DNA of 64,000 bases from assembly GCA_963766885.1 (NCBI GenBank), contig CAVYBO010000002.1:86097-150096 (forward strand), given 5' to 3'. The translations under genes were made by a program, and so were the position numbers. The notes beneath the pieces were generated by a model. That model made no database searches, was not told where the DNA came from, and saw only the letters and a program-made list of their open reading frames with translations. The DNA is from an uncultured bacterium (GTDB lineage: Bacteria; Patescibacteriota; Minisyncoccia; Phycocordibacterales; CAIRYW01). This document shows, piece by piece, positions 1 through 13,431 of this stretch (position 1 is its first letter; each line of letters opens with the position of its first letter).

Positions 1-507
1 CTAAAGTTGCTTTACAGCTTCTTCTAGAAAAGTTTTATCACGAGCAACAATAAATGGCCCGTTATAATCCCTTGGAATATTTTTTGAAACCAATTCTATT
101 GCTTCTGATATTGGAACCCAAATTGGTGCTATAAAACCTTCATCAATTTCATGTTTGGTAAAATCTGTTTTACCTTTTTCTCCTATCACTTTTGCAATAA
201 AACAATAAGAAGTTTGTTTTAGAGAAGATTGATTCGCTCTGAATTCAAGAATTTCACCAAGTTCTTTTATTATTTCAATTTCACAACCGATTTCTTCCAT
301 ACATTCTCTTTTTGTTGCATCAATAATTTCTTCGCCATCTTCAATGCCTCCACCTGGAAGCTTATAATAATTATGTTTCGTTACTGGAAGCAAAGCCACT
401 AAATTATTTTCATCAAATACCACAGCTCTTGCAGCCCGCCTAACCCTAAAATTGGAGGCTTCTTTTTCTGTAACATTTTCCGGGTTTATTGTTGCTAGAT
501 GTTTCAT
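1..507 (-). CDS. NUDIX hydrolase
   Basis: The 168-aa ORF carries a NUDIX box G-x5-E-x7-REcxEExGc (GGIEDGEEIIDATKRECMEEIGC). The stop codon is the first 3 nt of the window. Confidence 0.8.
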   Translation of the reverse strand: MKHLATINPENVTEKEASNFRVRRAARAVVFDENNLVALLPVTKHNYYKLPGGGIEDGEEIIDATKRECMEEIGCEIEIIKELGEILEFRANQSSLKQTSYCFIAKVIGEKGKTDFTKHEIDEGFIAPIWVPISEAIELVSKNIPRDYNGPFIVARDKTFLEEAVKQL

Positions 508-511
508 TTAT

Positions 512-952
512 TTAATATTTATCCCACCCAAACTCCGAGTAAAAAATTCCTTTCCTGTAGCATTCGATGGCTTCTCTGATATATGGAATAGTATTATCCG
601 GTAAATTACTGATATCAAACCAACTAAGATCACTACATTTGTTTGGTTCGGTGTTTGTGATTTCTCCTTTCCATTTTTTTGACTCAAAGAAGAAATCTAT
701 TCTTTCGTCATTACCTATTCTGTGCATTACTACTTTTAAGTCTAAATCATTCGGATCAATGTCCACTCCGCTTTCTTCTTTTGCTTCTCTGGCAGCTGCA
801 AAAGTCATAGCTTCGTTTCCATCTACATGTCCTGCAACAAGACTATAGTTTCCATCTTCATATCCTGTATTTGTTCTGCGAAGAAGCAGTGTCTTTTCTT
901 CTTTTCTGAAGAACAAGTAAACTGATGCAATTAATTTAAATTTTTCTTTCAC
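512..952 (-). CDS. NUDIX hydrolase (second, tandem)
   Basis: The 146-aa ORF carries a NUDIX box GHVDGNEAMTFAAAREAKEESGV. It is packed 4 nt from the previous NUDIX gene. Confidence 0.8.
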   Translation of the reverse strand: MKEKFKLIASVYLFFRKEEKTLLLRRTNTGYEDGNYSLVAGHVDGNEAMTFAAAREAKEESGVDIDPNDLDLKVVMHRIGNDERIDFFFESKKWKGEITNTEPNKCSDLSWFDISNLPDNTIPYIREAIECYRKGIFYSEFGWDKY

Positions 953-9933: not shown

Positions 9934-12843
9934 TCAGTTTTTAACCACAAAATTGACTATTTTGTTCTTCACTACTATCGTCTTTATCACATTTTTTCCA
10001 TCAATTTTTGTGGCAATTTGTGGCAGTTTTTTTATTTTTTCCAAGACAATATTTTCTTCAGCATCTTTTTTCACCTCTATTGTTCCTCTTGTCTTGCCGT
10101 TGATCTGAATTGCTATTGTTACTTGCTCATTTTCAACTATTTTTGAATCAAAATTTGGCCATTTTGAGGCAAAAATAGAATTCTTGTTACCAATCTCCTT
10201 CCATAATTCTTCACAGGTGTGTGGAGCAAATGGAGAAAGGATTATTAATAATTTTTCAAAAGATTTTTTAGTAATTGATTTGTGCTCATAGATACTATTT
10301 GTACAGATCATAAGTGCAGAAATTGCTGTGTTGAATGCCGTGCTTTCAATATCCTCGCCGACTTTTTTGATTACTTTATTGATTGCGATTGTTACTTCTT
10401 TGGGTTCGCTTTTTGTAATCAATTCTTTTATTCCAAAAACTCTTTCAATAAATCTTCTCGCACCGATGATGCCTTTGTCATTCCATGCAATCTGAGCTTC
10501 GTGCGGGCCGAGGAAGGCCATATAAACTCGCATGGTGTCTGCTCCGTAAAGTTTGACGATATCATCCGGATTGACCACGTTTCCCCTGCTCTTGCTCATT
10601 TTTTCGCCATCTGGACCAAGGATTATTCCGTGAGGAATTCTTTTGGTAAAAGGTTCTTTGGCCGTGACAAGTTTTTGGTCATACAAAAATTGATTCCAAA
10701 ATCTTGAATACAAAAGATGTAGAGTGGTGTGTTCCATTCCACCCAAATAAATATCCACAGGGGTCCAATATTTTTGTTTTTTAATGTCAGCAAATTCCTT
10801 TGTATTTTTTGGATCAGTGTATCGAAGCCAATACCAAGAACTTCCCGCCCACTGCGGCATTGTGTTTGTTTCGCGCTTTGCGTTGCCTTTGCATATTGGA
10901 CATTTCGTATTTACCCATTTATCAATTTTAGCCAGCGGCGATTCGCCTGTGCCTGTTGGTTCGTAGTTTTTTACCTTTGGTAAGATCACAGGCAAATCTT
11001 TGTCAGGTACGGGCACAGCGCCGTGCTTGTCGCAATGAATTACAGGAATCGGCTCGCCCCAATATCTCTGGCGGGAAAACACCCAGTCGCGAAGTTTATA
11101 TTTTGTAACAATTTTTCCTCCTACAAATTCTATAATTCTTTTAATCGCTTCACCGCTTGAAAGTTCCGAAAAATTTCCAGAATTTATAACTTTACCTTTG
11201 CCTGTGAATATATGATCTTCTTTTGAGTTAAGCGCTCGCCAGATGGCCGATATTTCTCCTACAGGATTAAATGATTTTGGTATTGATTCATATGGAACCC
11301 AAGAAATACTGTGCTTGGATTTTTCTTCATCATTTATTTCGTCATGAAGATCATCTGCTAAAACTAATTCAAAAACATGCATATGCGCGTACCGATTCTC
11401 ATCTTTGTGCTCGGCATACCATTCAGAACGCATTTCATGTCCAATGCGTCTAATTGATGAAAAGTTTTTATAACCAGTTTCTTCATAAACTTCACGTTTT
11501 ACTGCATCTTCAAGATTTTCATTATTTTCGGCACCACCAATTACAAAAGTTTTCCATGGAAACTTTTTCCAAACAATCTGGAGGACAGCATTATTTTTTA
11601 AATTTCTTACAATCCCCTGCACAACTATTCTCGGAGCATTTTGTTTGTCTTTTCTTGGAGGATTTTTCTCATCAATAAAATGTTCAGCGACAACTTGTCT
11701 TATTGGCAAGTTAAATTTCTTTGCGAATTCAAAATCTCGTGTATCGTGCGCTGGCACAGCCATAATCGCTCCAGTTCCGTAACCACCAAGCACGTAATCA
11801 GCAACAAAAATTGGAATTTCTTTTTGGCTTGCTGGGTTTATTGCCTTTACTCCTTTGAGTTCCACTCCAGTTTTTTCTTTTCCTTCAGAGGTGCGCTCTA
11901 TTTCAGATTTATTTTTTACTTGCCTAATATATTTTTTGACCTCTTCTTTATTTTCAAGGACGTTATGTTCGTTGTCTGTTGCAAGTGTGACCCACAAATG
12001 TTCTGGTGCAAGCACTAAATACGTTGCTCCAAAAATGGTGTCGGGACGAGTGGTAAAAATTTTTAGATGGGCTTTCTCTCCGTTTGGTCCTCGTCTTTTA
12101 TTGTCGTCAGGATTTTTTTTGAAATCCAAGTAAAAATCAATTTCTGCCCCTTCTGATTTACCAATCCAATTCTCTTGCTGGATTTTTACAGCTTCCGGCC
12201 ATTCTGGAAGATGTTTTAATCCTTCCAAAAGCTTTTCTGCATAGTCAGTGATTTTCAGATACCACTGACGAAGTTCTTTTTTCTCAACGGGTGTTCCGCA
12301 GCGTTCGCATTTACCGTCAATTACTTCTTCATTTGCAAGCCCTGTTTTATCTTTTGGACACCAATTGATCAAGCCTGTGGCTTCATACGCCAAACCCTTG
12401 CTCAAAAGTTCCAAAAATATTTTCTGCGTCCACTTATAATATTTTGGATCGCTCGTATTTATTTCTCTTGACCAATCAAACCCTGTGCCCCAACTCATGA
12501 GCTGCTTTTTGGCATTTGCAATATTTTTTTTAGTAGAAACTTCTGGATGGACTTTGTTTTTGATCGCATAGTTTTCGGCGGGTAATCCAAAAGCATCCCA
12601 ACCAATTGGATAAACAGTATTTAATTCTTTCAGTTTGTAATATTTTGACATTGCGTCTCCTGCAAGATATGGCCGAAGGTGTCCCATATGAAGTCCTGCT
12701 CCAGAAGGGTATGGGAATTCAATCAAAACATATTTTTTCTTACCTTTGTTTTCTTTACTATTTTCTTTTGCCTCAAAAACTTTTTTGGATTTCCAAAAGT
12801 TCTGCCATTTCTTTTCAATTTTCTTCGGATCGTATTTATTCAT
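9934..12843 (-). CDS. leuS: leucine--tRNA ligase with an inserted NUDIX domain
   Basis: The ORF has the HMGH class I motif (PYPSGAGLHMGHLRPY), KMSKS (GEKMSKSRGN) and the editing-domain end VPAHDTRDFEFAKKFNLPI. It has a roughly 150-aa insert with the NUDIX box GGAENNENLEDAVKREVYEETGY (nt 11470-11538 on the minus strand) before KLRDWVFSRQRYWGEPIP. Confidence 0.9.
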   Translation of the reverse strand: MNKYDPKKIEKKWQNFWKSKKVFEAKENSKENKGKKKYVLIEFPYPSGAGLHMGHLRPYLAGDAMSKYYKLKELNTVYPIGWDAFGLPAENYAIKNKVHPEVSTKKNIANAKKQLMSWGTGFDWSREINTSDPKYYKWTQKIFLELLSKGLAYEATGLINWCPKDKTGLANEEVIDGKCERCGTPVEKKELRQWYLKITDYAEKLLEGLKHLPEWPEAVKIQQENWIGKSEGAEIDFYLDFKKNPDDNKRRGPNGEKAHLKIFTTRPDTIFGATYLVLAPEHLWVTLATDNEHNVLENKEEVKKYIRQVKNKSEIERTSEGKEKTGVELKGVKAINPASQKEIPIFVADYVLGGYGTGAIMAVPAHDTRDFEFAKKFNLPIRQVVAEHFIDEKNPPRKDKQNAPRIVVQGIVRNLKNNAVLQIVWKKFPWKTFVIGGAENNENLEDAVKREVYEETGYKNFSSIRRIGHEMRSEWYAEHKDENRYAHMHVFELVLADDLHDEINDEEKSKHSISWVPYESIPKSFNPVGEISAIWRALNSKEDHIFTGKGKVINSGNFSELSSGEAIKRIIEFVGGKIVTKYKLRDWVFSRQRYWGEPIPVIHCDKHGAVPVPDKDLPVILPKVKNYEPTGTGESPLAKIDKWVNTKCPICKGNAKRETNTMPQWAGSSWYWLRYTDPKNTKEFADIKKQKYWTPVDIYLGGMEHTTLHLLYSRFWNQFLYDQKLVTAKEPFTKRIPHGIILGPDGEKMSKSRGNVVNPDDIVKLYGADTMRVYMAFLGPHEAQIAWNDKGIIGARRFIERVFGIKELITKSEPKEVTIAINKVIKKVGEDIESTAFNTAISALMICTNSIYEHKSITKKSFEKLLIILSPFAPHTCEELWKEIGNKNSIFASKWPNFDSKIVENEQVTIAIQINGKTRGTIEVKKDAEENIVLEKIKKLPQIATKIDGKNVIKTIVVKNKIVNFVVKN

Positions 12844-13431
12844 TTATCCTTGAATTTTGTTTCCAAACTTTTTTATTGAGAACCAAATTAATGCTCCAAG
12901 CGCAACCGCCAAGACAAAAACTTTTACCAAGCTGTTTGCATAACCCCAATATCTAATTGAAGCGATTAGAAAATCTAAAACGGCGCCGAGCGATAGTGCA
13001 ATAGACAAAACTTCTGAACCGTGGAAAAACAATGCTGCTGCAAATGTGATTACGCCCAAAGTAACAAGAGAAATAAAAATATCTCTGTCGTATGAATTCT
13101 GCGCATTTTCATATTTTTTCTCACAAGTATATGTTGGATTGCAAGAGCCAGTTGGTGCCACGTTAATCTGTTTTAACCCCAAAGCAGTTGGATTAAAAGA
13201 TGGGCCAGCAGGGCTGGGTGTTGGATACTGTGTCCAAGATCCTCCTACTGCGATACAAGTTTGTTGTGTTGTTGGTGTGGTGTTGACCTGTTCTGTCGGG
13301 CAAAAATCATTATATTGCGGAGTTGAAAAAACCAATGAGAGAGCGTAATTATAAAAAAGATTAAGGACAATAACTATTGCAATAACTAGCGACCATTTAA
13401 GAACCTTTGAATTGTTTTTGGTTTGATCCAT
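12844..13431 (-). CDS. hypothetical membrane protein (Thr/Pro/Cys-rich ectodomain, 3 TM)
   Basis: The 195-aa ORF has an N-terminal TM, a Cys-containing TPT-rich segment and C-terminal TM helices. Confidence 0.5.
   Translation of the reverse strand: MDQTKNNSKVLKWSLVIAIVIVLNLFYNYALSLVFSTPQYNDFCPTEQVNTTPTTQQTCIAVGGSWTQYPTPSPAGPSFNPTALGLKQINVAPTGSCNPTYTCEKKYENAQNSYDRDIFISLVTLGVITFAAALFFHGSEVLSIALSLGAVLDFLIASIRYWGYANSLVKVFVLAVALGALIWFSIKKFGNKIQG

Follow-up and report, generated by a model that had tools for sequence, protein, structure and literature searches.

A predicted Nudix hydrolase domain nested in the editing domain of leucyl-tRNA synthetase from Patescibacteria

The stretch of DNA analysed here (the window) comprises 64,000 nucleotides of contig CAVYBO010000002.1 from an uncultured bacterium of the Patescibacteria (candidate phyla radiation, CPR). 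On its minus strand an open reading frame (ORF) at 9934..12843 runs uninterrupted, as had been stated in the original prediction, and corresponds to leuS; translation yields a leucyl-tRNA synthetase (LeuRS) of 969 residues. A complete domain of the Nudix superfamily is inserted into this otherwise normal enzyme. The gene and its parts are the following, with residues numbered along the window protein and CP1 denoting the editing domain:

9934..12843, minus strand: leuS, 969 codons plus stop, encoding a bacterial-type LeuRS (open frame, TIGR00396, phmmer, AlphaFold2 (AF2) model)
12175..12843, minus strand: N-terminal half of the catalytic Rossmann fold, residues 1-223, with HMGH (the HIGH motif, 52-55) at 12679-12690 (PF00133/PF09334)
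11686..12174, minus strand: first part of the CP1 editing domain, residues 224-386, with TTRPDT at 264-269 and GTGAIMAVPAHD at 356-367 (PF13603 on residues 224-391, profile positions 1-146 of 185)
11209..11685, minus strand: inserted NUDIX domain, residues 387-545, with the Pfam core (410-524) at 11272-11616 (PF00293)
11470..11538, minus strand: Nudix box, G436-x5-E442-x7-R450-E451-V-x-E454-E455-x-G457-Y458 (translation)
11095..11208, minus strand: last part of CP1 and the strand back to the core, residues 546-583 (PF13603 after excision of the insert; aligns to Thermus thermophilus LeuRS 377-417)
10444..11094, minus strand: second half of the catalytic core, residues 584-800, with RQRYWG (591) and KMSKS (748-752) at 10588-10602 (PF00133 on residues 584-786)
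9937..10443, minus strand: anticodon-binding and C-terminal domains, residues 801-969 (PF08264 on residues 820-933; aligns to T. thermophilus LeuRS 637-877)

The whole protein scored 987.4 bits with the TIGR00396 leuS_bact model (cutoff 548.4), the match falling into two stretches broken by the insert, and comparison with T. thermophilus LeuRS (1h3n) by phmmer gave an E-value of 5e-218. Both class I motifs, HMGH (residue 52) and KMSKS (748), are present and invariant in 86 aligned homologues, the set used for all statements on motif invariance; H52, G54 and H55 are likewise invariant. CP1 was recognized by PF13603 with 188 bits. Its editing motifs TTRPDT (264), GTGAIMAVPAHD (356) and AHD (365-367) are intact, and T269 and D367 are invariant. 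The protein is the housekeeping, orthologous LeuRS of a CPR bacterium and has kept all of its own catalytic and editing motifs. The leucine-specific domain is typical of the E. coli and T. thermophilus enzymes and is not universal. It is absent here: residues 744 and 748 align to T. thermophilus positions 580 and 637, so that about 56 residues (T. thermophilus ∼581-636) are missing. Because LeuRS relatives of about 800 residues that carry no NUDIX domain also lack it, this loss looks like a feature of the clade, independent of the insert.

The insert itself was identified by PF00293, which covers residues 410-524. The match scored 43.2 bits when the complete protein was searched and 47.5 bits (E = 2.3e-12) for the excised segment alone, both above the gathering cutoff of 21.1. 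This is far beyond a chance motif. The Nudix box GGAENNENLEDAVKREVYEETGY occupies residues 436-458 (11470-11538 on the minus strand, exactly where it had been predicted) and reads G436-x5-E442-x7-R450 E451 V Y E454 E455 T G457 Y458. It satisfies the pattern GX5EX7REUXEEXGU, including the catalytic glutamates. The interval 11209-11691, to which the domain had been assigned, translates to residues 385-545. In the alignment with T. thermophilus LeuRS, residues 1-386 of the window protein correspond to 1-363, 546-744 to 377-580 and 748-968 to 637-877. The net insert is therefore 159 residues in place of a loop of 13. From AHDTRDFEFAKKFNLPI (365-381) to KLRDW (583) the window protein has 201 residues and T. 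thermophilus LeuRS about 56, in place of the approximately 170 and 25 given in the original prediction. The position also had to be revised, since the domain had been placed after the end of CP1 and before the core. Ahead of the insert the PF13603 match ends at profile position 146 of 185; when residues 387-545 were deleted in silico, it became contiguous over positions 1-183. The NUDIX domain is accordingly an insertion within CP1, and CP1 in turn is inserted into the Rossmann fold, a domain within a domain within a domain.

The full-length AF2 model, computed with 86 sequences, reached a pLDDT of 90.1 (91-96 across the insert) and a pTM of 0.78, and it superposes on LeuRS-tRNA complexes with a TM-score of ∼0.83, normalised to the target. 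A confident AF2 model was also obtained for the excised domain. In these models the insert shows the alpha/beta/alpha sandwich that defines the Nudix superfamily. It is predicted to fold as an autonomous module. Its two ends come together, which is a requirement for an inserted domain.

Conservation was analyzed in 78 full-length NUDIX-bearing LeuRS. The insert shares on average 36% identity with the window copy, compared with 66-73% for the LeuRS catalytic core and 39% for the anticodon-binding region. The metal-binding and catalytic residues of the Nudix box are nevertheless almost fixed (E442 96%, R450 96%, E451 99%, E454 99%, E455 100%; G436, G437 and G457 each 100%). A second set of conserved residues is specific to this family: R405 (100%), W425 (90%), W430 (92%), K480 (97%), N483 (95%), R484 (96%), E507 (96%) and W515 (100%). 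The subfamily has conserved motifs of its own, WKKxxWxTF upstream of the box and HKxxNR downstream. As box and family-specific residues are near-invariant while the domain drifts to 36% identity, the pattern indicates maintained catalysis and a defined substrate pocket. Among representatives of clusters at 50% identity, 68 of 89 copies at the same site have a canonical box. Five members of the subfamily (P0086, P0090, P0092, P0102, P0112) show W at an otherwise invariant G of the box. These are likeliest to come from genomes that read UGA as Gly (code 25) and were translated with UGA as Trp, which suggests that code-25 lineages of the Gracilibacteria/Absconditabacteria type also carry the subfamily.

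A purely non-catalytic role has to be considered against this pattern. The Nudix fold could bind Ap4A (diadenosine tetraphosphate), ADP-ribose or an alarmone and tune editing or aminoacylation, comparable to NrtR or CFIm25, or it could only stabilise the protein. However, Nudix proteins that merely bind a ligand usually lose the canonical catalytic residues, all of which are kept in the window copy and in about three quarters of the same-site copies. Moreover, the four attachment points described below are hard to square with a specific allosteric path. We regard such a sensor or scaffold as very improbable.

The distribution of the domain was determined by an exhaustive phmmer search with the insert against 1.84 billion cluster representatives, which returned 282 relatives. 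The best 150 of these comprise about 100 LeuRS, whole or in fragments, that carry the domain where the window protein does, and about 45 free-standing domains or fragments of ∼160 residues; the only other host identified among them is prolyl-tRNA synthetase (ProRS). When the whole LeuRS was used as query, PF00293 was found in 94 of the 120 best matches, with source names such as Candidatus Taylorbacteria, Parcubacteria, Paceibacterota, Doudnabacteria and 'Patescibacteria group'. In addition, DNA from one genome per GTDB species was scanned for the motif W-K-x3-W-x-T-F-[IV]-x-G-G. At least 120 loci were found; among the matches listed, 114 have the NUDIX domain within leuS and 4 encode it as a free-standing protein, the remaining 2 being chance matches. 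The titles of these listed matches are nearly all from the CPR (Paceibacterota, Moranbacteria, Uhrbacteria, Nomurabacteria, Zambryskibacteria, Adlerbacteria, Kaiserbacteria, Berkelbacteria, Levybacteria, Sungbacteria, metagenome-assembled genomes labelled Saccharibacteria, and Minisyncoccia); a few bear other labels, which are unconfirmed. The LeuRS of T. thermophilus, E. coli and Neisseria gonorrhoeae have no NUDIX insert, and neither do some syntenic CPR orthologues. The insert is thus lineage-specific and not a standard LeuRS subdomain. Calling the architecture unusual, as the original prediction did, holds relative to characterised synthetases. Within Patescibacteria it does not, as NUDIX-in-LeuRS is the majority form among the closest relatives of the window protein.

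This recurrence also disposes of the idea that a chance motif, or a gene fusion created by misassembly or frameshift, was mistaken for a domain. One relative could be cited for it: on a short ENA scaffold (L001) the NUDIX-bearing leuS is split into two called genes of 286 and 225 residues, probably through a frameshift or assembly error and not as a natural split enzyme. In the window, however, the frame is continuous and the profile match has an E-value of 2e-12. An identical protein (P0152) lies on a public contig of 596 kb, more than 100 independent genomes share the architecture, and AF2 modelled the domain as well as the whole protein with confidence. An artefact is hardly conceivable, and we consider it refuted by the independent assemblies.

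The site in the window protein is not the only one. In window numbering, NUDIX domains of the subfamily occur in LeuRS at 209/210 (often as a tandem pair), at 241-255, at 386/546, which is the site in the window and the commonest, and at 647-656. These insertions, at four or more different loops, are independent. Up to three copies are present in one LeuRS (P0003, P0004, P0264, L043, L105). Tandem pairs ahead of CP1 were seen in P0003, P0004, P0005, P0008, L043, L105 and L009. Such pairs start with a canonical copy, followed by one in which E442 is usually replaced by Q or D and R450 by A, Q or K; this combination was found in P0003, P0004, P0005 and P0008 and is reminiscent of a pseudo-dimer of an active and a degenerate subunit. 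Copies with this type of variant box also exist as free-standing proteins and at the site used in the window. In a neighbour-joining tree of 153 domain copies, computed without support values, embedded and free-standing copies are intermixed and the E-to-Q/R-to-A variants cluster, a hint of repeated fusion and fission.

The second host is a class II enzyme. P0089 is a ProRS with a NUDIX domain of the subfamily between its anticodon-binding and C-terminal domains, and four further cluster representatives (P0272-P0275) share the design, forming a small clade of proteins of 641-674 residues. The closest relatives of this clade that lack a NUDIX domain bear the labels Nanoarchaeota and Woesearchaeota. 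P0089 departs from the canonical box, with KE for RE and one residue fewer. As far as hosts were identified among the best 150 representatives, the tether is specific to synthetases, and it is not tied to one geometry.

These sites bear on the possibility that the module, carried on the mobile CP1, acts on a modified RNA terminus and adds a repair or quality-control site. It might remove a 5' triphosphate or cap, as RppH or NudC do, or a 3'-pyrophosphate left by toxins of the toxSAS type; toxins that pyrophosphorylate the tRNA CCA end have been documented (10.1101/2021.04.30.441581, PMC11559606). At three of the four insertion sites the module is located within CP1 or next to it, and the structural and profile neighbours of the insert include decapping Nudix enzymes such as RppH, NudC and AvrM14. 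On the other hand, in ProRS and at 647-656 the domain is not joined to an editing domain at all. The insert is also acidic, with a net charge of -5 for the window copy and -5.8 on average in the 78 homologues, which is unusual for an RNA-binding surface, and a literature search found no link between Nudix enzymes and removal of a 3'-pyrophosphate. Action on a tRNA or RNA end is in our view quite unlikely.

To place the insert within its genomic context, the neighbourhood of leuS was compared between relatives. In the window the gene order is YchF-like, CM_2, membrane protein, leuS, sigma70-r4/HARE-HTH, DUF8128, YceG and MnmA. The same order surrounds the NUDIX-bearing leuS of P0153, which is 78% identical, and that of P0169, an 800-residue LeuRS with no NUDIX domain that is 72% identical over the 44% of the query aligned by BLAST. 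NUDIX-less relatives have 29-84 residues where the window protein has 211, and in the close ones the boundaries are clean (IKKVI, a short loop, then xGxLxNSxKFxxL). The insert has thus been gained or lost among close relatives. It is more AT-rich than the remaining leuS (GC 0.348 versus 0.380; GC at third codon positions 0.226 versus 0.335). Relaxed constraint, amino-acid composition or a foreign origin could each account for this, and as a signal of recent transfer it is weak and not decisive.

Among free-standing members of the subfamily, the closest paralogue (P0012, on a JGI contig) lies 2 bp upstream of a NUDIX-bearing leuS, in the slot between DUF5671 and leuS. In the closest relative of the window this slot holds a Ham1/ITPase-family gene (L124:7363-7971, plus strand). 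In the window it is empty, and a membrane-protein ORF of 195 residues (12844-13431) abuts the leuS start codon. In a Staskawiczbacteria genome an ORF resembling LAGLIDADG homing endonucleases (L027:2009-2455, plus strand) is directly upstream of a free-standing NUDIX gene of the subfamily. Taken as a Rosetta-stone argument, the neighbourhood offers weak support for a link between Nudix and leuS.

LeuRS of this lineage accept other domains as well. In a set drawn from P0178, P0264, P0229, P0165, P0153, P0017 and P0038, alpha/beta Ser_hydrolase and DUF559 endonuclease-like domains were found ahead of CP1 in some CPR LeuRS. In others the core contains, near residues 605-608 and 647-657, either a HAD_2 domain or a stretch of 135-200 residues that matches nothing in Pfam. 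In the CPR lineage, LeuRS seems particularly prone to domain grafting.

The insert may be no more than an ordinary nucleotide-sanitising or salvage Nudix enzyme, a MutT/NudI-like NTPase or a hydrolase of NDP-X compounds, that works independently of LeuRS and sits in a permissive loop. Fusion to an essential, constitutively expressed protein would then provide co-expression in a streamlined genome with no coupled chemistry. Presence and absence of the insert among syntenic orthologues fit such a hitch-hiker, as do the alpha/beta-hydrolase, HAD and DUF559 domains in the same or nearby loops and the four insertion sites, which require no fixed geometry. NudI and MutT-type NTPases rank among the best structural and profile neighbours, and a house-cleaning gene of the Ham1/ITPase family takes the place upstream of a relative's leuS where another genome has a free-standing Nudix gene. 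Yet random hitch-hiking should also sample other abundant proteins, and all identified hosts among the best 150 representatives are synthetases (LeuRS in about 100 cases, ProRS in one small clade). That insertion occurred repeatedly and independently, and that one host carries tandem copies, likewise argues for an advantage specific to that host. We therefore hold independent salvage to be a serious but doubtful alternative.

The explanation that we prefer is an active hydrolase functionally linked to the synthetase. Intact LeuRS motifs, a conserved Nudix box and recurrent insertion into synthetases together suggest a polypeptide with three centres, in which a Nudix hydrolase spliced into a surface loop of CP1 would add a Mg2+-dependent pyrophosphohydrolase to synthesis and editing. 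Selection would favour a physical tether to the synthetase and not one precise geometry, and the benefit would lie in proximity to, or stoichiometry with, the host enzyme. Synthetases make Ap3-5N, and Nudix enzymes cleave Ap4A asymmetrically (PMC7705103). The domain might therefore split Ap4A, Ap3A or Ap4N into AMP and NTP, or act on related nucleotide by-products. Such by-products would arise when ATP or another nucleotide attacks the aminoacyl-adenylate, and the enzyme would clear its own side-products in very small, nucleotide-scavenging cells. We put the chances about even that the insert is such a synthetase-linked hydrolase, with substrates of the ApnN type (dinucleoside polyphosphates) the most likely; within that reading the specific substrate has perhaps one chance in three of being right.

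As to the substrate, the profile of the insert matches the lupin Ap4A hydrolase 1f3y (E = 5e-8) and the chlamydial Ap4A hydrolase CT771, which rank with its best solved relatives; the E-values are 5e-8 to 2e-6 and the matches fall mostly on the Nudix box. The window copy further has W at +17 and Y at +18 after the box; in the 78 homologues +17 is always F, Y or W, and +18 is F or Y in about 90%, F being commoner than Y. A Tyr 16-18 residues past the box is reportedly a marker of Ap4A hydrolases, a proposal said to go back to Dunn et al. 1999. Together the profile matches and the aromatic pair offer weak support for an ApnN substrate. Hydrolysis of mis-activated aminoacyl-adenylates, which had also been proposed, is chemically the least likely activity. 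Aminoacyl-adenylates are acyl-phosphate anhydrides of a nucleoside monophosphate, and the substrates of Nudix enzymes are diphosphate-linked, so that the bond does not fit Nudix chemistry.

Several observations speak against a synthetase-linked ApnN hydrolase. The insert is dispensable for LeuRS function, as syntenic orthologues without it exist, and the same LeuRS loops host unrelated alpha/beta-hydrolase, HAD and DUF559 domains, which fits permissive loops and not a dedicated partnership. LeuRS is a weak producer of Ap4A compared with LysRS or PheRS. Of the free-standing paralogues whose neighbourhoods were compared, only P0012 abuts leuS; five others adjoin unrelated genes, namely an HD phosphohydrolase, PurL, pyruvate kinase together with a LAGLIDADG gene, DUF2207 and another Nudix gene. 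The window contains two more, mutually adjacent NUDIX genes, at 1-507 (minus strand, 168 residues) and 512-952 (minus strand, 146 residues). Both lie on the leuS strand, have canonical boxes, fall below every NCBIfam cutoff and are distant from the insert, with 35 and 21 bits to the hidden Markov model of the subfamily. Structural neighbours of the insert are functionally heterogeneous and include ADP-sugar hydrolases, ApnA hydrolases, NTPases and enzymes that decap RNA, the nearest being 2azw, an uncharacterised MutT/nudix protein from Enterococcus faecalis. Finally, the insert reached no curated Nudix subfamily model at NCBIfam cutoffs. It scored 24 bits with the NudI model (cutoff 95) and 15-20 bits with the RppH models (cutoffs 116-241), and it stayed below the cutoffs of the equivalog models for MutT/NudI-type NTPases and of the Ap4A hydrolase subfamily models. 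By these profiles it cannot be assigned to any characterised Nudix subfamily. A role in defence was dropped, as neither the insert nor the whole protein matched any PADLOC defence model.

A more far-reaching version is that ultra-small symbiotic prokaryotes have repeatedly and independently welded one Nudix subfamily onto synthetases, LeuRS in the CPR and ProRS in DPANN-like organisms, for a synthetase-linked reaction that lacks a counterpart in model organisms. This reaction could be proofreading or repair of tRNA ends or adenylylated intermediates, or an obligatory control of ApnN alarmones in cis. We consider this unlikely. If true, the Nudix domain would not be a passenger but would join synthesis, editing and tRNA binding as a fourth functional element of the enzyme.

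Few enzymes have been studied as thoroughly as synthetases, whose accessory domains have time and again brought new biology to light, such as editing, signalling and Ap4A production. A predicted pyrophosphatase nested in CP1 across much of the CPR, with convergence in ProRS, would surprise a synthetase specialist. The finding is broader than a single odd gene, as the architecture is conserved across a large part of the CPR and has a counterpart in a ProRS clade with nearest relatives labelled as DPANN archaea; the enzymatic role is a prediction. The architecture offers a handle on how nucleotide-scavenging organisms with minimal genomes treat synthetase side-products or damaged nucleotides, and on how new catalytic modules are grafted onto essential enzymes. 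It also marks naturally permissive LeuRS loops (209/210, 241-255, 386/546, 605-608 and 647-657), and such inserts explain why the NCBI pipeline frequently names these LeuRS 'class I tRNA ligase family protein'.

In the full-text literature searched, including a 2024 catalogue of synthetase domains (PMC11580382), no publication was found that describes a synthetase, whether LeuRS, ProRS or another, with a Nudix domain; the architecture is visible in databases through automatic Pfam labels and is apparently unstudied. With the bacterial LeuRS of T. thermophilus (1h3n/2bte) and E. coli (4aq7) the window protein shares the HIGH and KMSKS motifs, the anticodon-binding and C-terminal domains, and a CP1 at the bacterial insertion point with its T-rich and AHD motifs. 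It differs from them by the Nudix domain of 159 residues in place of a 13-residue CP1 loop and by the missing leucine-specific domain of about 56 residues. The insert shares 11-21% identity with small single-domain Nudix hydrolases (2azw, NudI 3oga/6dt3, RppH, Rv2985/MutT1, 1f3y and CT771). While those proteins are free-standing, the insert is embedded and forms a distinct subfamily with its own motifs. An extra catalytic module on a synthetase is a theme shared with the IleRS-GNAT fusion (NF040702), the editing domains of AlaRS and ThrRS, and the trans-editing factors. Those modules are terminal or deacylate tRNA, whereas here a predicted pyrophosphohydrolase lies inside an already inserted domain and varies in site and copy number. 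If the synthetase-linked hydrolase proves to be the right explanation, its two-step logic would be that of producers and hydrolases of Ap4A encoded by separate genes (ApaH, YqeK, RppH/NudH, NUDT2); in contrast to those pairs, the producer and the presumed scavenger would share one polypeptide.

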